This document shows, piece after piece, positions 23,908-40,728 of a stretch of DNA of 44,707 bases (position 1 is its first letter; every line of letters starts with the position of its first letter). Where the stretch lies: contig CAINWR010000037.1 of NCBI GenBank assembly GCA_903854535.1, positions 1 through 44,707 on the forward strand, read 5' to 3'. The notes under the pieces were generated by a model. It did no database searches and was not told the DNA's origin. It saw nothing but the letters and a program-made list of their open reading frames with translations. Source of the stretch: Candidatus Staskawiczbacteria bacterium. GTDB taxonomy: Bacteria > Patescibacteriota > Minisyncoccia > Minisyncoccales > Staskawiczbacteraceae. A program made the position numbers and the translations under genes.

Positions 23908-23975
23908 TAGTTTGTAGTTGGTAGTTTGTAGTTGGTAGAGATTAAAAAATCTACAAACTACTCACTATAAACTAC
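23908..23975. repeat. imperfect long hairpin built from GTAGTTT/GTAGTTG heptamer repeats
   Basis: tagtttgtagttggtagtttgtagttggtagag attaaaaaat ctacaaactactcactataaactac, in the rpsF-ssb intergenic region. Confidence 0.65.
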
Positions 23976-27556: not shown

Positions 27557-27618
27557 AAGTTTGTTTGTTATTTATTTTTATTCTTAATCTTACCACTAAG
27601 CTAAAGTAGGGTAAACTC

Positions 27619-27646
27619 TTGACATTATATTACTATATGATATAAT
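27619..27646 (+). promoter_or_regulatory. sigma70-like promoter of DGR-1 target gene
   Basis: TTGACA at 27619-27624, a 16-nt spacer, then TATAAT at 27641-27646. Confidence 0.55.
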
Positions 27647-27675
27647 TAATAAATACACTCAGATGTTCTGTTTGT

Positions 27676-27710
27676 ATCCATTTGTGAGTAGCAAATGGAA
27701 GAATGTTTTT
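27676..27710 (+). promoter_or_regulatory. leader hairpin plus T-run (terminator-like) in the 5' UTR of DGR-1 target
   Basis: tccatttg tgagtag caaatgga forms an 8-bp stem followed by agaatgtttttt. It ends about 5 nt before the SD (GGGGA). Confidence 0.45.
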
Positions 27711-27725
27711 TGAAAGGGGAAAGCC

Positions 27726-28406
27726 ATGAGTAATGGCGATGCGGTGCTGGCTCGTCTGTTCAAACTTTGGGCGATGGTTTGCAAGCTTATCATGGATGGT
27801 AAGCGGAGCGCAGAACAAGTTTGCGAAGTTCTGCAGGTCATTGTCGATGAGCGACAAGTCAAGACCAAAGTTGAGGAGTGGTTTGTTTTTTACAAGGAGG
27901 TTTTTGGTCTTGTGCTCGATTTTTCGGAATTGAAAATTCCCGAGCGTCGACCCGGCTTTGATCGTCTGATTGTTGTGGCCCAAGGAATGACGCCACAGCG
28001 ATTGTTTGAGAAATGCCAAGAATTATTTTCGTCATGGAAGTGGACGGAAAAAAACCTTGATGAGATCATTGCGTCTGCACGAACTGCACAAAACGGTGCT
28101 TATGCCGTTTGGGTTCGTGATCGTGTGGAAGCAGATGAAGAAAACAAAAATCTGTCTGCCGACGATCTTTCTGTTAAAGGCGAGGCCGAAGAAACCCTTG
28201 AAGAACGGATACTTCATGAGTTGAAATATTTCCGAGAAACCGGAAAGCACTTGGATGTCCAAAATTGGACACTGTGCTCCGGCTCGCTCTATTCTGGTGG
28301 CCTTGTTCCGTGTACTAACTGGAGCAGTGACTGGTTCAAGGTCGTTTGGTTTCACCCCGATTTCTGCAATGGCGACTTGCGCGCCCGCTCCGCAGTTCCC
28401 CAGTAG
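27726..28406 (+). CDS. DGR-1 variable (target) protein, G+C-rich, no signal peptide
   Basis: 226-aa ORF with SD GGGGA. The last 40 codons are the VR. C-terminal scaffold: GxVPCTNWxSDxFKVxWxHPDxxNxxLRARS. Confidence 0.85.
   Translation: MSNGDAVLARLFKLWAMVCKLIMDGKRSAEQVCEVLQVIVDERQVKTKVEEWFVFYKEVFGLVLDFSELKIPERRPGFDRLIVVAQGMTPQRLFEKCQELFSSWKWTEKNLDEIIASARTAQNGAYAVWVRDRVEADEENKNLSADDLSVKGEAEETLEERILHELKYFRETGKHLDVQNWTLCSGSLYSGGLVPCTNWSSDWFKVVWFHPDFCNGDLRARSAVPQ
28281..28400 (+). repeat. DGR-1 variable region (VR)
   Basis: 120 nt, 103/120 identical to the TR. 16 differences fall at TR adenines and 1 non-A difference at 28398. Confidence 0.9.
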
Positions 28407-28426
28407 TCGTTCGCTTTTTCCCTCGT

Positions 28427-28465
28427 GTCGCTTTTGGTAATGGATTTACCGAAAGCGACTTTTTT
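28427..28465 (+). terminator. intrinsic terminator / post-VR hairpin
   Basis: gtcgcttttggtaa tggat ttaccgaaagcgac forms a 14-bp stem (one G:U) with a 5-nt loop and a T6 run. It starts 21 nt after the target stop codon. Confidence 0.8.
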
Positions 28466-28473
28466 GTTATAAT
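28465..28473 (+). promoter_or_regulatory. candidate extended -10 promoter for the TR-containing RNA
   Basis: TGtTATAAT lies immediately after the terminator T-run. The -35 is weak (ttaccg). Confidence 0.3.
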
Positions 28474-28656
28474 AAATTTGGCTAATACAGCCGGCCCGCC
28501 TTAGGCGAGGTGTCGGTTTGCCAAGAAAATGGGGAACTGCTTGCCTGATTTTAACGAGTTCTGACTCGGAATAACACTCCACAAGGATGGAGCGTAAACA
28601 CAGAAAATTTTGAAAAAGATTTTCGGTGAAACAGAAGAAATTTAGGCAAAATAATG

Positions 28657-28776
28657 GGCTCGCACTATTCTGGTGGCAATGTTCCGTGTACTAACTGGAA
28701 CAGTGACAAGTTCAAGGTCAATTGGAATCACCCCGATAACTACAATAGCAACTTGCGCGCCCGCTCCGAAGTTGCC
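28657..28776 (+). repeat. DGR-1 template repeat (TR)
   Basis: Non-coding copy of the VR. In the VR frame it would encode GSHYSGGNVPCTNWNSDKFKVNWNHPDNYNSNLRARSEVA, rich in AAY codons. The invariant GC block ACTTGCGCGCCCGCTCCG lies near the 3' end. Confidence 0.9.
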
Positions 28777-28783
28777 TAAAAAT

Positions 28784-28810
28784 CAAAAGGAGTTTTTAAA
28801 ACTCCTTTTG
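28784..28810. terminator. 12-bp hairpin 7 nt after TR-1; the 3-nt loop is the avd stop codon
   Basis: caaaaggagttt tta aaactccttttg. The loop at 28796-28798 is the complement of the avd-1 TAA. Confidence 0.6.
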
Positions 28811-29179
28811 TGTTAAAGAATTTATCCAATTATTTATATCTTTGGATATTTCTACTAAATAATTTTCTAGTTCAATATATTTTTTATCTTTAATAATTTG
28901 TAATTCCCAAGAAGTTCTTATCAGTAATTTTAAAGTTTCAACTTTTATATGAGCTGATTTTAAAGGTTTTAGTTTATAGCTTTTATTTTCAAAACGAACT
29001 TCGGTTAATATTTCAATAATGTCTAAACAAGTATTTTCAATTTTCATAAAAATACCAAATCTATCTTTCTTTAAAATTTTAAACGAAATAAAGTAAATCT
29101 TTTTGTAAAAATCACAAAATTTATGCAAAACAGGAATATTAAAATTTCCAAATGTCTGGGGGGGGGTATTATTTGCCAT
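28796..29179 (-). CDS. avd: Avd-like four-helix-bundle protein (DGR accessory variability determinant family)
   Basis: 127 aa, helical, paralog of 39385..39777. The shared pattern ...K.ETLK..L...WE...I.DKKYI.L...L.EI.K.....W fits four-helix-bundle (23S rRNA IVS-like) proteins. It is antisense to TR and RT. Confidence 0.7.
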   Translation of the reverse strand: MANNTPPQTFGNFNIPVLHKFCDFYKKIYFISFKILKKDRFGIFMKIENTCLDIIEILTEVRFENKSYKLKPLKSAHIKVETLKLLIRTSWELQIIKDKKYIELENYLVEISKDINNWINSLTQKEF

Positions 29180-36627: not shown

Positions 36628-37980
36628 TTATTGATTAACTCTATTTTCTAGATTTTTCAAAAGATTTTGCTTTCTTAATTTTTTGTGATAAGTAATTGCA
36701 AATCTGTGGGCTTCATTATCAAGATTTTTAATTAAATTATAAATTTCTTGAGGCAGATTCTTCAAAGGAATAGGATTTTTTTGTCCCTCTATAAATAATT
36801 GTTGTTTGCCTTTGGCAATAGAAATAATCTTAATAGTTTGTAGTTTGTAGTTGGTAGTGAGTAGTTTATTTTTTATGTTGATTGCGACATTGATTTGACC
36901 TTTCCCCCCATCAACTAAAATTATTTCTGGATATGGCCAATCTTTGTGACTAAATCTTCTTTGCAGAACTTCAGAAAGCATTGCAATATCATTGGGCTCG
37001 TTTTTCATTTTTATGCGGAATTTTTTGTATTCAGCTTTGTTAGGTTTTCCATTTGTAAAAACAACCATAGAACCCACGGCAAATTTACCTTGAATATTTG
37101 AAATATCATAACACTCTATTCGGCCTGTAAATTGTAAAATTGGTGAGCTGTCCGACCGCTCGCCGACTTTGCTGTGGTTTATTACTCTTTCTAAAGCAAA
37201 AATTTGGTCGCGAATTTTACTCGCTCTTTCGAAATCTTGGTTTTTTGAGGCTAATTGCATTTCTTTTTTGAGCGATCTTAAAACTATAGAAGATTTTCCT
37301 TCTAAAACTAAAATAAGTTTCTTGATATTTGTTTTATATTCCCGAAGGTCCTCCGAAGCTTTAGGCGAAGGCGGATTTTCAAATAATTTAGGTCCAGGAC
37401 ATAGATCTAAATGGCACCACTGGCATTTTAGTTTTGAGTGTTTATTTGTTGTATAGTAAGGAAATACTTTTCTTAAAAATCTTATAGTTTTTTTTAGAGC
37501 GTTACCATCTACAAAAGGACCGATGTGTTTAGGTTGTAGTTTGTAGGAAGTAGCTTGTAGATTTTGATTTGGTTGATGGGTGATAAAAACATAAGGAATT
37601 TTAAGTTTACCCTGAGCGTAGCGAAGGGCGACATAAAAATAGTTTTTATCATCACGCCAAACTTGATTAAATTTGGGTTGATATTTCTTAATTAAATTAG
37701 CTTCTAAAATTAAAGCTTGTATTTCACTACCAGTTTCAATAAATCCAATTTTTTCAATTTGCTTTATATAAACATTATCTTTGTAGGTGGGGGATGAGAA
37801 ATGATTTTTAACTCTACTATTGATATTTATAGCTTTGCCAATATAGATAGGTTGTAGGTTGTAGCTAGTGGGTTGTAGGTTTTTGATGACTTGCGATTTT
37901 TTAGCATAAAACGCATAAACACCTGCTGTTGTTGGCAGGTTGTTTATATTTTTTACGCTTATAATCTTAAATTTATCCAT
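36628..37980 (-). CDS. uvrC: excinuclease ABC subunit C, short form without an obvious C-terminal (HhH)2
   Basis: GIY-YIG (GVYAFY...IYIGKAININSRVKNHF), UVR motif (FERASKIRDQIFALERV) and endonuclease domain (IECYDISNIQGKFAVGSMVVF...VDGGKGQINVA). Only 450 aa. Confidence 0.8.
   Translation of the reverse strand: MDKFKIISVKNINNLPTTAGVYAFYAKKSQVIKNLQPTSYNLQPIYIGKAININSRVKNHFSSPTYKDNVYIKQIEKIGFIETGSEIQALILEANLIKKYQPKFNQVWRDDKNYFYVALRYAQGKLKIPYVFITHQPNQNLQATSYKLQPKHIGPFVDGNALKKTIRFLRKVFPYYTTNKHSKLKCQWCHLDLCPGPKLFENPPSPKASEDLREYKTNIKKLILVLEGKSSIVLRSLKKEMQLASKNQDFERASKIRDQIFALERVINHSKVGERSDSSPILQFTGRIECYDISNIQGKFAVGSMVVFTNGKPNKAEYKKFRIKMKNEPNDIAMLSEVLQRRFSHKDWPYPEIILVDGGKGQINVAINIKNKLLTTNYKLQTIKIISIAKGKQQLFIEGQKNPIPLKNLPQEIYNLIKNLDNEAHRFAITYHKKLRKQNLLKNLENRVNQ
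36833..36870. repeat. in-frame CTACAAA-type heptamer repeat inside uvrC (encodes NKLLTTNYKLQTI)
   Basis: The + strand reads atagtttgtagtttgtagttggtagtgagtagtttatt. Its reverse complement shares aaactactcacta with the 23951-23975 hairpin arm. Confidence 0.6.
37532..37566. repeat. in-frame heptamer repeat inside uvrC (encodes QNLQATSYKLQP)
   Basis: The + strand reads ggttgtagtttgtaggaagtagcttgtagattttg. Confidence 0.6.
37850..37885. repeat. in-frame heptamer repeat inside uvrC GIY-YIG domain (encodes KNLQPTSYNLQP)
   Basis: The + strand reads ggttgtaggttgtagctagtgggttgtaggttttt. Confidence 0.6.
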
Positions 37981-38022: not shown

Positions 38023-38052
38023 CTTGACAATATATAATAAAATATGCTAAGA
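38023..38052 (+). promoter_or_regulatory. sigma70-like promoter of DGR-2 target gene
   Basis: TTGACA at 38023-38028, an 18-nt spacer, then TGcTAAGAT with the -10 at 38047-38052. The inverted repeat caagct tta agcttg (38011-38025) overlaps the -35. Confidence 0.45.
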
Positions 38053-38113
38053 TATGTTTATAAATTTTATTGTTCTTTTAATTCGGCGGTCGTAGCCAAA
38101 AGTTTTGAAAATC

Positions 38114-38139
38114 AGATAGACATCGGGTGTCTATCTTTT
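38114..38139 (+). promoter_or_regulatory. leader hairpin plus short T-run in the 5' UTR of DGR-2 target
   Basis: agatagaca tcggg tgtctatct forms a 9-bp stem followed by ttt, directly before the SD GAGGA. Confidence 0.45.
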
Positions 38140-38153
38140 GAGGATTTTTGGCT

Positions 38154-38882
38154 ATGACTGCTATTGGGGTGGTCAAGTTCCTGCTTCGGAATAGAGGTTA
38201 CTTCAAAGCGGGCAAATTAGCCCAAGGAGTGTGTGGGATGAGGAATGATTTTGCAATCGCCGGGATTGAGGTTGGTCAGTTGAATGCTCTTGTCAAGAAC
38301 CTCAAAGCTCAAATGAGTATTGAGGATTCAGTGGAAGCGGTTCGGCGCGTCAACTCGGGCGAGTGGATTGTTTCCGAACGAGTTCGTCGATGGTACGAGA
38401 AAGATGGCGTGATTCGGTTCGAAGTCACTGCCAATGGTTGGAGTGGTCAGCATTGGGTTGACTACTTCAAGGCCAATGGAGTGGATGTAGGGCAATACGC
38501 CAATTCGATTTTGTTGTCACCTGACTTCAAAATCACTCCGGGCGGAACCGTGGTCAAGGCCACTGTCTTTAAAGGAGAGATATTTTCGGACAGCGATCGA
38601 ATCACGGGAAAGATTCGTGCTTTCGTAGCCCGGTGCCAGCTGAAGCTATTAACGCCCAATACGGATTTGGCGTGTTTGATTCGAAAAGATCTCACGAACA
38701 AGGAAGTCCGCGATATGGGTTTGCGATGGATCATCGGGATGTCGGAGACTGTGAAGGATTCCGATGGCGGTCCGAGCTTGCTTTGCTCGCGCTGTGATGG
38801 TTCGGGTCCGTGGCTCACTGCGCGCTATGGCTTTCCCGAGTGCAGGTGGCTTCGCGGCATTGGGTTTGCCTTCGTCGAGTAA
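38154..38882 (+). CDS. DGR-2 variable (target) protein, G+C-rich, no signal peptide
   Basis: ATG at 38154, 9 nt after GAGGA (the track's 38148 start is TTG). The last 40 codons are the VR. The C-terminal scaffold ...SPWLxAxYxxPExRWxRxxGFAFVE fits a C-type-lectin-fold style ending. Confidence 0.85.
   Translation: MTAIGVVKFLLRNRGYFKAGKLAQGVCGMRNDFAIAGIEVGQLNALVKNLKAQMSIEDSVEAVRRVNSGEWIVSERVRRWYEKDGVIRFEVTANGWSGQHWVDYFKANGVDVGQYANSILLSPDFKITPGGTVVKATVFKGEIFSDSDRITGKIRAFVARCQLKLLTPNTDLACLIRKDLTNKEVRDMGLRWIIGMSETVKDSDGGPSLLCSRCDGSGPWLTARYGFPECRWLRGIGFAFVE
38759..38879 (+). repeat. DGR-2 variable region (VR)
   Basis: 121 nt, 100/121 identical to TR-2. All 21 differences are at TR adenines. Confidence 0.9.
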
Positions 38883-38944
38883 GTATCTTCGGGAAATTAG
38901 TTCTCGGCGCTTTGAATTTTTGTCCTTGTGCTTGGAACCTTTTA

Positions 38945-38984
38945 CCCTTTGCGTTTCTTCGGAATCGCAAAGGGCTTTTATTTT
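38945..38984 (+). terminator. intrinsic terminator after DGR-2 target
   Basis: ccctttgcg tttcttcggaat cgcaaaggg forms a 9-bp stem followed by cttttatttt. Confidence 0.75.
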
Positions 38985-39039
38985 CCATAAAACTTTGATA
39001 AACTAAAAATGGTAATAGGCGAATCTTGCTTGAGTTTAC

Positions 39040-39066
39040 GGATTCAGGCGGCCGAATCCAGTTTTT
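39040..39066 (+). terminator. second terminator-like hairpin in the VR-TR spacer
   Basis: ggattc aggcggcc gaatcc followed by agttttt. Confidence 0.45.
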
Positions 39067-39240
39067 GTGTGTTGAGAGCGTTTGCGATTATGGTTTCAAA
39101 CGGAGGATGCACAAAATACTAAAAAACCGAAGATACTTGGTGCGAAGAATTAAGGTATTTTAGATACCGAATAAGATTCAACTCTAAGATCGTTTCATAT
39201 AAAATTCAAAGGGTGGTGGTATAGATGATTTTTCGCAATT

Positions 39241-39361
39241 TTCCGATGGCAATCCGAACTTGCTTTACTCGAACTGTGATGATTCGAGTCCGTGGCTCAA
39301 TGCGAACTATGACAATCCCGAGAACAGGTGGAATCGCGACAATGGATTTGCCTTCGTCGAG
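39241..39361 (+). repeat. DGR-2 template repeat (TR)
   Basis: Non-coding copy of VR-2. In the VR frame it would encode SDGNPNLLYSNCDDSSPWLNANYDNPENRWNRDNGFAFVE, which has 9 Asn AAY codons. Confidence 0.9.
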
Positions 39362-39378
39362 CTACTCTCTTCATTTTT

Positions 39379-39400
39379 CTCTCCTTATTTTCTAGGAGAG
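39379..39400. terminator. 7-bp hairpin 17 nt after TR-2, straddling the avd-2 stop codon
   Basis: ctctcct tattttct aggagag. The avd-2 stop complement lies at 39385-39387. Confidence 0.5.
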
Positions 39401-39777
39401 TTTTGTTTTAAATTTTGTATTTGATTGTGCCAACCACCCAACATTTTACCAATTTCATTTAACTTTTCAGAAAGCAAAATATATTTTTTATCATCAATTG
39501 ATTTTGTTTCCCAAAGAATCATTAGAAATATTTTAAGTGTGTCAGTTTTTCTAATTGCTAATCTTATCCAAGGCAATTTCTCTTGTGGTTGCAAAAATCC
39601 AGCTGTAGTTGTAGTTTCTATTGCTTTAACAAAAAGATTATCTATTTTTTGTCCAAGCGAATATTTGTGTGTTTTTGGAATTTTATTTGAAAATTCATAC
39701 CAAACAAGATAGGTTTCTTTTAGTTTTTGCGAAATAGGTAATAATGAAACATTGTTATGAAAACTATTTTGCATCAT
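39385..39777 (-). CDS. avd: Avd-like four-helix-bundle protein
   Basis: 130 aa. KIPKTHKYSLGQKIDNLFVKAIE...LAIRKTDTLKIFLMILWETKSIDDKKYILLSEKLNEIGKMLGGW matches the remembered four-helix-bundle (TIGR02436-like) pattern. It is antisense to TR and RT. Confidence 0.75.
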   Translation of the reverse strand: MMQNSFHNNVSLLPISQKLKETYLVWYEFSNKIPKTHKYSLGQKIDNLFVKAIETTTTAGFLQPQEKLPWIRLAIRKTDTLKIFLMILWETKSIDDKKYILLSEKLNEIGKMLGGWHNQIQNLKQNSPRK

Positions 39778-40728
39778 AAATTTGAAGAAATAATTAATAT
39801 TGAAAATTTACTTTTAGCCTACAAGGAATTTGCTAAGGGAAAGAAAAACAGAATGGATGTTTTGGAATTTTCATTTATGCTAATGGATAATTTAATAGAG
39901 CTTCGAGACGACCTTGCCAATCATACTTACAAGCATCAAGATTATCAAGAATTTAAAATAAATGATCCAAAACCAAGAACAATCCACAAAGCAACAGTTA
40001 GAGACAGAATTTTGCACAGAGCAGTCTATAGGATTTTATATCCATTTTTTGATAAAAAGTTTATTGTAGATTCATATTCTTGTAGAAATAAAAAAGGAAC
40101 TCACAAAGCCATAAACAAATTTTCAGAATTTACCAACAAAGTTTCAAAGAACAACACTAAACAATGCTGGATTTTGAAATGTGATATTAAAAAGTTTTTT
40201 GCTAGTATAGACCAAAATATATTGCTGGAAATTTTAGAAAAATATATTGACGATAAAGATACAATAAACCTGCTCAAAGAAACAGTTTATAGTTTTAAAC
40301 TAGGCGGTTTGCCACTTGGAAATTTAACTTCACAACTTTTTAGTAATATTTATTTAAACGAATTTGATCAATTTATAAAGCATAAATTAAAAGCTAAATA
40401 TTATGTTCGCTATTGTGATGATTTTGTAATATTTTCACAAGATAAAAATTATTTAAAAAGTTTAATTCCAATAATTATTAATTATTTGCAAAATGTGTTA
40501 GGTCTCACCTTACACAAAGATAAAGTTTTTATCAAAACAATTTATTCTGGCGTAGACTATTTGGGCTGGGTAAATTTTAAAGATCATAGAATTTTACGAA
40601 GCAAAACAAAAACTAGAATGTTAAAACGAATAAAAGAAAACCCAAAATTAGAAACAATAAATTCTTATTTGGGATTATTAAATCATGGAAATGCATACAA
40701 AATTAGTTTATTATTAAACTATGATTAG
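39757..40728 (+). CDS. DGR reverse transcriptase 2
   Basis: LPLGNLTSQLFSNIYL and RYCDDFVIF. The first 21 nt overlap the avd-2 start on the opposite strand. Confidence 0.9.
   Translation: MKTILHHKFEEIINIENLLLAYKEFAKGKKNRMDVLEFSFMLMDNLIELRDDLANHTYKHQDYQEFKINDPKPRTIHKATVRDRILHRAVYRILYPFFDKKFIVDSYSCRNKKGTHKAINKFSEFTNKVSKNNTKQCWILKCDIKKFFASIDQNILLEILEKYIDDKDTINLLKETVYSFKLGGLPLGNLTSQLFSNIYLNEFDQFIKHKLKAKYYVRYCDDFVIFSQDKNYLKSLIPIIINYLQNVLGLTLHKDKVFIKTIYSGVDYLGWVNFKDHRILRSKTKTRMLKRIKENPKLETINSYLGLLNHGNAYKISLLLNYD

Follow-up and report, generated by a model that had tools for sequence, protein, structure and literature searches.

The stretch of DNA analyzed here (contig CAINWR010000037.1, 44,707 nt; hereafter the window, to whose positions all coordinates refer) carries at 38023-40728 a real and complete chromosomal diversity-generating retroelement (DGR) of the class known in the Candidate Phyla Radiation (CPR), or Patescibacteria. 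We refer to this element as DGR 2, a further cassette of the window being DGR 1. It consists of a target gene that ends in the variable repeat (VR), a template repeat (TR), an avd gene in reverse orientation and a reverse transcriptase (RT) gene, in this order (Table 1). The added value of the analysis lies in a conserved leader RNA upstream of the TR and in an apparent permuted, retron-like organization of the DGR RNA, of which we found no earlier description in Rfam or in the available DGR papers. Taken jointly, a CPR-class DGR at 38023-40728 and a leader-primed RNA mechanism by which it would operate form the explanation that we regard as likely to be correct.

Table 1. Features of the DGR 2 cassette and their positions in the window
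Feature	Position	Strand	Remarks
Target promoter-like site	38024-38053	+	TTGACA, 18-nt spacer, TAAGAT, TG before the -10; assigned by consensus match only
Structured 5' untranslated region (UTR) of the target mRNA	38086-38229	+	Long hairpin 38086-38161, two short hairpins, Shine-Dalgarno (SD) motif AAGGAG 38224-38229
Target gene	38238-38882	+	214 aa from ATG 38238; open reading frame (ORF) open from 38148
VR	38759-38879	+	The target's last 40 codons; aligns with the TR over 121 nt without gaps
VR 3' flank, resembling an initiation of mutagenic homing (IMH) site	38880-38892	+	Leader 39127-39138 and 38881-38892 are perfect reverse complements
Target terminator-like hairpin and T-run	38945-38984	+	Read from the sequence; hairpin 38945-38974
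Weak extended -10-like site TGATAAACT	38996-39004	+	Putative, for the leader-TR RNA
Structured RNA leader	39014-39240	+	Directly 5' of the TR
Leader helix P1	about 39018-39053	+	Two nested stems
Leader helix P2	39064-39115	+	
Proposed primer strand AAAAAACCGAAGAUACUUG	39121-39139	+	Immediately 5' of P3; role suggested by analogy with spacer (Sp) positions Sp47-56 of Bordetella phage BPP-1
Leader helix P3	39140-39151 paired with 39227-39238	+	
Leader helix P4	39154-39168	+	
Leader helix P5	39182-39213	+	
TR	39241-39361	+	Between the P3 3' strand and the primer-binding flank
TR 3' flank (IMH*-like)	39362-39378	+	Complementary to the primer strand at 8/11 positions; C39362 opposite G39139
Hairpin and UUUUGUUUU	39379-39409	+	Hairpin of 7 bp (39379-39400); directly after the TR, overlaps on the opposite strand with the final codons of avd
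avd-2	39385-39777	-	130 aa, convergent on the TR
RT-2	39757-40728	+	323 aa, divergent from avd-2

DGR 2 is a complete cassette of a known class

The VR and the TR aligned without gaps at an offset of 482 nt, with 100 identities over 121 positions. The 21 mismatches were all found at TR adenines (A>G 12, A>T 5, A>C 4), of which the TR has 30; the hypergeometric probability of such a placement is 8.4e-17. The alignment thus confirmed the main claim of an earlier, sequence-only reading of this DNA, which had counted 100/121 identities with every difference at 21 of the 30 TR adenines, and the TR and VR translations given there proved correct when checked again. Homology ended at 38879, right before the TAA stop codon (38880-38882), and 7 of the next 12 nt matched, as expected from the claim that the repeats are similar up to the stop codon and only partly so beyond it. 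The TR adenines fell 11, 18 and 1 times on codon positions 1, 2 and 3, respectively, with nine AAY codons and not a single codon able to mutate to a stop. Such adenine placement is the usual design of a DGR template.

The other parts of a DGR were also found in place. The VR lies inside a protein-coding target, and the TR is non-coding and adjoins the accessory and RT genes, with 23 nt between it and the avd-2 stop codon. Avd, an accessory protein present in most DGRs although not in all, was recognized by Pfam bAvd (1.3e-13), by the PHROG family "Avd protein of DGR" (3e-18) and, with a score of 64.3 bits that is below the cutoff of 80, by NCBIfam DivGenRetAVD (1.1e-17). RT-2 matched RVT_1 (7.5e-24) and the PHROG reverse transcriptase family (3.7e-101). 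It is related to bRT of Bordetella phage BPP-1 (31% identity over 283 aa, E 3e-49), with which it has the block GxPxGxLTSQLFxNxY in common.

The order of target/VR, TR, opposite-strand avd and RT is that of architecture B3, "TR-(avd)-RT", which Wu et al. (2018, PMC5758913) found in 90% of the CPR DGRs that they surveyed. Such elements have been placed in the Patescibacteria-restricted DGR clade 2 (Roux et al. 2021, PMC8144416). From this published layout and clade it follows that DGR 2 belongs to a known and abundant class. It shares with CPR B3 DGRs the gene order and orientation, a small target with a C-terminal VR and no recognizable domain, transmembrane (TM) helix or, judging by hydropathy, signal peptide, the occurrence of several DGRs in one genome and, to judge from its relatives, probably the CPR host group. 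The cassette itself shows no difference from them and is one more ordinary member of this well-populated class. DGRs of CPR and DPANN organisms were reportedly first surveyed by Paul et al. in 2017.

Relatives of the target were found at 289 loci in GTDB representative genomes, 80 of which were fetched and listed; these 80 are the family loci referred to below. The layout of DGR 2 recurred in 42 of them with order and spacing kept, that is, the target followed after ~360 nt by a same-strand TR of ~128 nt, a reversed avd and an RT. The avd stop codon of the related cassettes lies 6-50 nt past the TR, and their TR/VR mismatches occur almost only at adenines. Where the record titles of the listed loci name a group, it is mostly one of the Patescibacteria (for example Falkowbacteria, Uhrbacteria, Saccharibacteria or Paceibacterota); many others are labeled Gammaproteobacteria or just bacterium and one is labeled Pacearchaeota. 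The closest relatives of RT-2 came from 0.1-0.2 um groundwater fractions.

A covarying RNA leader occupies the interval between VR and TR

The 360-nt gap between VR and TR is not a plain spacer, since it contains the target terminator-like hairpin, a promoter-like site and a structured leader of ~225 nt. Across 40 loci this interval was conserved in both length and sequence, and its elements followed the same order: a terminator-like hairpin with a T-run, a TATAAT box and the ~225-nt leader reaching up to the TR. The weak -10-like site of DGR 2 aligned with this family-conserved TATAAT box, which stands ~10 nt upstream of the leader.

We analyzed the leader with RNAalifold on an alignment of the 40 loci (A3). 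The consensus structure comprised 71 pairs, 49 of which showed compensatory changes. Paired cells amounted to 94.4%, versus 38-53% in controls where the partners were slid by 1-3 columns, and the doubly changed, compensatory cells numbered 379 versus 52-83 in the same controls. None of 500 shuffles reached the observed values. The helix closest to the TR, P3, has 12 bp and showed compensatory changes in 10 of them; when 15 related loci were compared by hand, TR/VR homology began 0-3 nt past this helix. The covariation support for the leader is therefore strong.

A covariance model (R1) was built from 30 leaders. It gave 176 bits on the leader of DGR 2 and matched all 43 of the 43 cassette-bearing related loci. 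We also fetched 80 metagenomic loci with an RT profile, and the model matched 37 of the 54 that had enough upstream sequence, and the RT start always lay 500-780 nt downstream of the match. Since the targets at most of these loci are not related to those of DGR 1 and DGR 2, the leader is part of the module formed by RT, avd and TR in this DGR clade, and not of one target family. The Rfam search of the window returned only a tRNA-Leu at gathering thresholds, with nothing credible at E <= 1 in 38880-39420. In the available DGR papers we found no mention of a conserved leader upstream of the TR or of a conserved target 5' UTR. The covariance model offers a way to find TRs, and hence DGR targets, in fragmentary metagenomes.

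Weak R1 matches (34-48 bits) were also seen just downstream of orphan targets at four loci (L008, 4757-4922; L036, 4776-4944; L053, 3711-3904; L072, 1384-1520), none of which has a TR, avd or RT nearby. These matches may be remnants of decayed cassettes.

A leader strand next to P3 pairs with the flanks of both repeats

The segment immediately 5' of P3 has the consensus AAAUGAAGAUACUUGG, in which ACUUGG was invariant in the 40 loci. In DGR 2, the duplex of leader 39127-39138 with VR flank 38881-38892 had an energy of -19.9 kcal/mol (z = -5.7 versus shuffles), and its perfect run of 12 nt was not equaled in length by any of 300 shuffles. The IMH-like and IMH*-like flanks are distinct, the VR flank being the perfect 12-nt complement of the primer-like strand and the TR flank a mismatched one. 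At the TR boundary, the consensus leader segment can pair with the TR 3' flank and the three TR bases before it at 13 of 15 positions, the other two being conserved mismatches. The pairing of this segment with the TR boundary and flank reached 77.7%, compared with 30-49% in slid controls, and its covariation was modest. In about 32 of 39 loci the VR flank paired better than the TR flank with the leader segment.

Perfect leader:VR-flank runs of 10-13 nt were observed in DGR 2, DGR 1, L152, L146, L137 and L042, some of them including compensatory changes or an insertion. The lineage-specific changes included ACCUG with CAGGU in L146 (11 nt), a base inserted in L152 (13 nt), GCUAC with GUAGC in L113, L158 and L159, and AAGAAUCG with CGATTCTT in L134, all of these six being metagenomic loci with other targets. 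The general feature is a short core, ACUUG:CAAGU, with locus-specific extensions. In 2000 of 2000 permutations, leaders paired better with the flanks of their own locus than with those of other loci, for VR and TR flanks alike.

Two simpler descriptions of this pairing were tried and rejected. A long leader-VR complementarity as a general rule fails because most loci have runs of 5-6 nt, which shuffles often equal. A 9-bp primer helix alone (AAAUGAAGA:UCUUCAUUU) is broken by six loci, which are covered by the extension to 15 positions with its two conserved mismatches.

A single conserved hairpin follows the TR

On the other side of the TR, the hairpin at 39379-39400 covaried in the 40 loci and the UUUUGUUUU that follows was almost invariant. 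It resembles a terminator, may correspond to the stem-loop that binds Avd, or both. This hairpin was the only conserved structure downstream of the TR: beyond it, the antisense avd sequence gave no consensus structure (alifold -3 kcal/mol). A structured downstream spacer within antisense avd was therefore rejected, and DGR 2 would have no counterpart of the 140-nt downstream Sp that BPP-1 requires. Hence, the BPP-1-type stem-loop directly after the TR is present, and a structured spacer 3' of the TR carrying primer or RT-binding elements is absent. The GC-rich inverted repeat found directly downstream of the IMH in other DGRs is likewise absent, the nearest hairpin (38945-38974, followed by a T-run) being 63 nt away; such a repeat occurs in only 34% of DGRs and is not defining.

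A permuted, retron-like RNA would account for the leader

In BPP-1, the primer strand is located in the Sp, A56 primes and TR G117 is the first templated base; Sp59-70 pairs with a segment just upstream of the TR (the "cPRT Stop"), the stem-loop directly after the TR binds Avd, and 140 nt of downstream Sp are needed (10.1101/2023.10.23.563531). The RNA primer pairs more extensively with the IMH than with the IMH*, and this was proposed to set directionality (Naorem et al., PMC5703328). When we checked BPP-1, Sp41-60 gave -21.2 kcal/mol with the VR IMH and -12.5 kcal/mol with the TR IMH*.

DGR 2 and BPP-1 (mtd-avd-TR-Sp-brt) have in common an RT with 31% identity, Avd, adenine-specific mismatches, an RNA strand whose pairing is imperfect at the TR 3' end and better at the VR 3' end, a duplex with the segment just upstream of the TR, and the stem-loop directly after it. 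In DGR 2 this primer-like strand (39121-39139) is found on the 5' side of the TR, where it adjoins the P3 strand that pairs with the upstream-of-TR segment, and P3 corresponds to the "cPRT Stop" duplex in that TR homology starts 0-3 nt past it. The two elements differ in that DGR 2 has its avd on the other strand, convergent on the TR, no structured spacer between TR and RT, and no GC-rich hairpin immediately behind the VR. On the 5' side of its TR, DGR 2 carries the primer-like strand, the strand that pairs with the upstream-of-TR segment, and three to four more helices. Moreover, DGR 2 is chromosomal rather than phage-borne and its target is not a tail fiber.

From these similarities we propose the following mechanism. 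A discrete RNA of ~400 nt, containing the leader, the TR and the hairpin (about 39005-39410), would be made from its own promoter and bound by RT-Avd. Leader segment 39121-39139 (...GAAGAUACUUG) would then fold onto the sequence just 3' of the TR and prime cDNA synthesis. Because G39139 faces C39362, templating would begin at G39361, the base that closes the TR/VR homology, and this would explain why homology stops at the stop codon. Synthesis would cross the TR, misreading adenines, and stop at P3, which abuts the TR 5' end. Finally, the primer-cDNA hybrid would anneal at the VR through flank 38881-38892. Because the VR flank is perfectly complementary and the TR flank is mismatched, this step is proposed to provide both directionality and separation from DGR 1.

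The order of elements in such an RNA would be P1, P2 - primer - P3(5') - P4, P5 - P3(3') - TR - primer-binding flank - hairpin. One would obtain it from the BPP-1 order by joining the former 3' end to the 5' end and opening the circle between the stem-loop that follows the TR and the primer strand, so that the stem-loop alone would stay 3' of the TR. By this analogy, we lean, if only slightly, towards the view that CPR B3 DGRs use a circularly permuted, retron-like DGR RNA, in which the primer, the stop duplex P3 and probably the RT-binding helices are placed 5' of the TR.

In retron msr-msd RNA the priming nucleotide is upstream of the template, as it would be in the permuted DGR RNA. The 3' end of the retron RNA folds back beside the priming nucleotide (a1/a2 duplex), and the structured part recognized by the RT precedes the template on the 5' side. 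What retrons produce is multicopy single-stranded DNA (msDNA) used in defense, not a cDNA that replaces a gene segment; retrons are not known to have Avd or adenine mutagenesis. The leader of DGR 2 showed no sequence or Rfam similarity to msr-msd.

A permuted RNA would explain why avd is antisense against the TR and where TR/VR homology starts and ends, and it would link the topology of DGR RNAs to that of retrons. The comparison also delimits an RNA (about 39005-39410) whose helices are named and in which candidates exist for the priming nucleotide and for the sequence that recognizes the target. The hosts are unculturable and no reconstitution of a member of this class is known; an RNA so defined makes it possible to test in vitro, and directly, how the most numerous cellular DGR clade works.

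Alternative explanations

Several observations weigh against the leader-primed mechanism or against an active DGR 2. The leader promoter is a weak call in DGR 2, and the single-sequence fold of the leader was unexceptional (z = -1.27). The primer helix showed few compensatory changes and keeps its two conserved mismatches, and a six-locus subfamily pairs it in a shifted register. Most loci of the main family have perfect VR-flank complementarity over only 5-6 nt. The permutations that compare own with foreign flanks are uncorrected for relatedness. Which nucleotide would prime, and whether through its 2'-OH or its 3'-OH, is pure analogy. Other points of this kind bear on the three alternatives that follow.

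DGR 2 might be silent or decaying in spite of its intact look, its 21 differences being a record of past homing. In agreement with this, the VR was identical on all 10-12 public contigs carrying the protein, a Logan assembly was identical over 6.6 kb, the 90% cluster of the target had a single member and hence no VR variant, and the target has lost the C-terminal tail of its relatives, with TAA for CAA. The look-ups by exact sequence, however, return identical proteins only, and the contigs may be from one site. All ORFs are intact, the 121 nt of TR and VR contain no non-adenine difference, the leader still scores 176 bits with the family model and the primer strand still has its perfect 12-nt complement in the VR flank. 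In addition, five natural proteins (P0003-P0007) have an identical scaffold and differ only in the VR, at adenine-codon positions of the DGR 2 TR, so that at least one sister element diversifies in nature. We therefore consider a silent DGR 2 unlikely.

The RNA could also be of the conventional Bordetella-like type, with a functional spacer downstream of the TR (the hairpin plus antisense avd) and the leader acting as a regulatory or stabilizing 5' UTR. Handa et al. described BPP-1-like elements in CPR DGRs, taking 40 nt before and 100 nt after the TR, and thereby imply that these DGRs have a downstream spacer. They predicted that stem-loops bound by Avd closely follow the TR and that upstream and downstream sequences form duplexes; DGR 2 does have a covarying hairpin right after its TR. 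Yet the + strand beyond that hairpin lacks conserved structure, with the almost invariant UUUUGUUUU coming right after it and the avd stop codon lying 6-50 nt past the TR. The segment upstream of the TR pairs with a leader strand (P3) and not with downstream sequence, and the only segment with BPP-1-like primer properties is in the leader. We regard the conventional layout as distinctly unlikely for DGR 2.

An ordinary duplication or chance repeat beside an unrelated retroelement (retron, group II intron fragment or defense RT), which would suit the best NCBIfam matches of RT-2 (models for group II introns, Drt and retrons, each scoring far under its cutoff, Pfam and NCBIfam holding no curated DGR-RT model), is effectively refuted by the adenine-only pattern (P = 8.4e-17), the presence of Avd, the bRT alignment (E 3e-49) and the recurrence of this layout, again with mismatches specific to adenines, in more than 40 relatives.

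DGR 1 and DGR 2 as separate systems of one window

The sequence-only reading had presented DGR 2 as an independent cassette whose RT and Avd are paralogues of those of DGR 1. This was borne out: DGR 2 is a separate, complete cassette with its own TR/VR, Avd and RT, the two RTs being 53% and the two Avd proteins 34% identical. The two targets were unrelated (no BLASTP similarity) and so were the two TRs, as that reading had also stated. Neither TR matched the VR of the other cassette. The cross-reactivity check that it had suggested found no additional VR for either TR in the 44.7-kb window, the next best site matching at 39 of 91 non-A positions.

The leaders of the two cassettes are very different, scoring 176 and 28.6 bits with R1 for DGR 2 and DGR 1, respectively. 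The DGR 1 homologue (28476-28653, E 1e-5) is directly upstream of TR1, and its positionally equivalent segment, 28529-28540, contains a perfect 11-mer complement of the VR1 end (28392-28402). In view of this 11-nt match, the terminal TR1/VR1 "A>C" may be an IMH*/IMH difference and not the result of mutagenesis. Each of the two primer-like strands matched only its own VR flank. If the choice of target rests on pairing between primer and VR flank, DGR 1 and DGR 2 would be insulated from each other, and two co-resident DGRs would each be addressed to their own target by the VR 3' flank.

One TR can match more than one VR in this family. On LCGL01000001.1 (Candidatus Falkowbacteria GW2011_GWF2_43_32; L011, L036 and L045), a single TR matched three VRs at 95/96, 93/96 and 85/96 non-adenine positions, two of the three belonging to orphan paralogues of the target at distances of about 15 and 55 kb. 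Orphan targets account for about 35 of the 80 family loci.

Target gene and protein

At the place equivalent to the promoter-like site of the target, TTGACA...TATAAT was conserved in 76 related loci. The following 5' UTR of ~150 nt contains a 21-bp hairpin and two short hairpins, the last one abutting the SD. RNAalifold on 33 loci gave 29 pairs for it, 20 of them with compensatory changes, and the same UTR also precedes orphan copies of the target. It had no Rfam match over 38086-38229 and is a candidate cis-regulatory RNA. The homologues cover the target only from ATG 38238, which the AAGGAG at 38224 precedes, so that this ATG is most likely the start and the protein most likely has 214 aa. 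The terminator-like hairpin and T-run after the target are conserved in the family consensus; in DGR 2 the hairpin was not listed by the terminator scan because its loop has 12 nt.

The target homologues formed 81 clusters (about 80), none with a Pfam domain, and the family is confined almost entirely to Patescibacteria. Searches with hidden Markov models and structures, which the sequence-only reading had suggested for identifying the non-variable domains, did not identify them. The target itself had no Pfam, NCBIfam or PHROG match, and thus lacked the FGE-sulfatase/DUF1566 Pfam signature of C-type lectin variable proteins. A PDB profile search found no DGR variable protein; a weak, repeat-like match of residues 34-75 to a phage Ig-like protein in the same search was regarded as non-specific. 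The AlphaFold2 (AF2) model had a predicted local distance difference test score (pLDDT) of 90.5 and consisted of an N-terminal helical/beta part and a C-terminal beta-alpha-alpha-beta4 part carrying the VR; the C-terminal half modeled alone gave a pLDDT of 62. The top Foldseek matches of the model in PDB and BFVD were C-type lectin domains, none of them significant (E 0.08-1, probability <= 0.13). On these models, a C-type lectin-like fold is plausible but unproven. The target shares with the C-type lectin DGR proteins Mtd, TvpA and AvpA a C-terminal VR of ~40 residues with variable positions at AAY-type codons, and differs from them in having no significant structure match and no sequence match to solved structures.

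The lack of a TM helix and of a signal peptide had been taken as evidence for an intracellular target. The first part stood, as no TM helix was found (maximum 19-residue Kyte-Doolittle mean of 0.85, longest upstream start included); from hydropathy, what can reasonably be retained is a non-membrane target. This is already in the literature, CPR clade-2 targets being typically without TM or other recognizable domains (Roux et al. 2021, PMC8144416).

Two further observations were made on the ends of the protein. The DGR 2 target ends in ...GFAFVE-TAA, where relatives read CAA and continue into a tail (QVSxx...), and the TAA at 38880-38882 looks like a CAA>TAA change within the motif that pairs with leader ACUUG. 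The first ~40 residues of the target (FAIAxxxxGQLNALVKNLMxQ...DPxEAVRRVNSGEW) were also found as the N-terminal module of otherwise unrelated small proteins (P0075-P0081), with 60-73% identity over about 20% of the query.

Gene overlap, base composition and a short repeat

The divergent avd and RT genes overlap at their 5' coding ends, by 21 nt in DGR 2 (39757-39777) and by 57 nt in DGR 1 (29123-29179), so that each gene would hold the promoter of the other. In public annotations RT-2 begins further downstream; the longer N-terminus used here is conserved between RT-1, RT-2 and bRT.

The window has a GC content of ~27%. In both DGRs, the block of target gene, leader and TR (27600-28800 and 38100-39400) reaches 45-54%, against ~27% for the genome, and the adjoining avd and RT genes have 26-27%. 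The 42 related cassettes showed a mean GC at third codon positions (GC3) of 0.63 in the target versus 0.37-0.38 in avd and RT, with a flank GC of 0.41. Composition is thus split inside one and the same cassette.

Finally, the short repeat GGTTGTAGNTNGTNG occurred 8 times versus 0.06 expected, in clusters at 36836-36857, 37532-37546, 37850-37885 and 23910-23938. Three of the clusters are inside the uvrC ORF on the minus strand, where they encode ...LQ(P/A)TSY(K/N)LQP... peptides, and one is intergenic.

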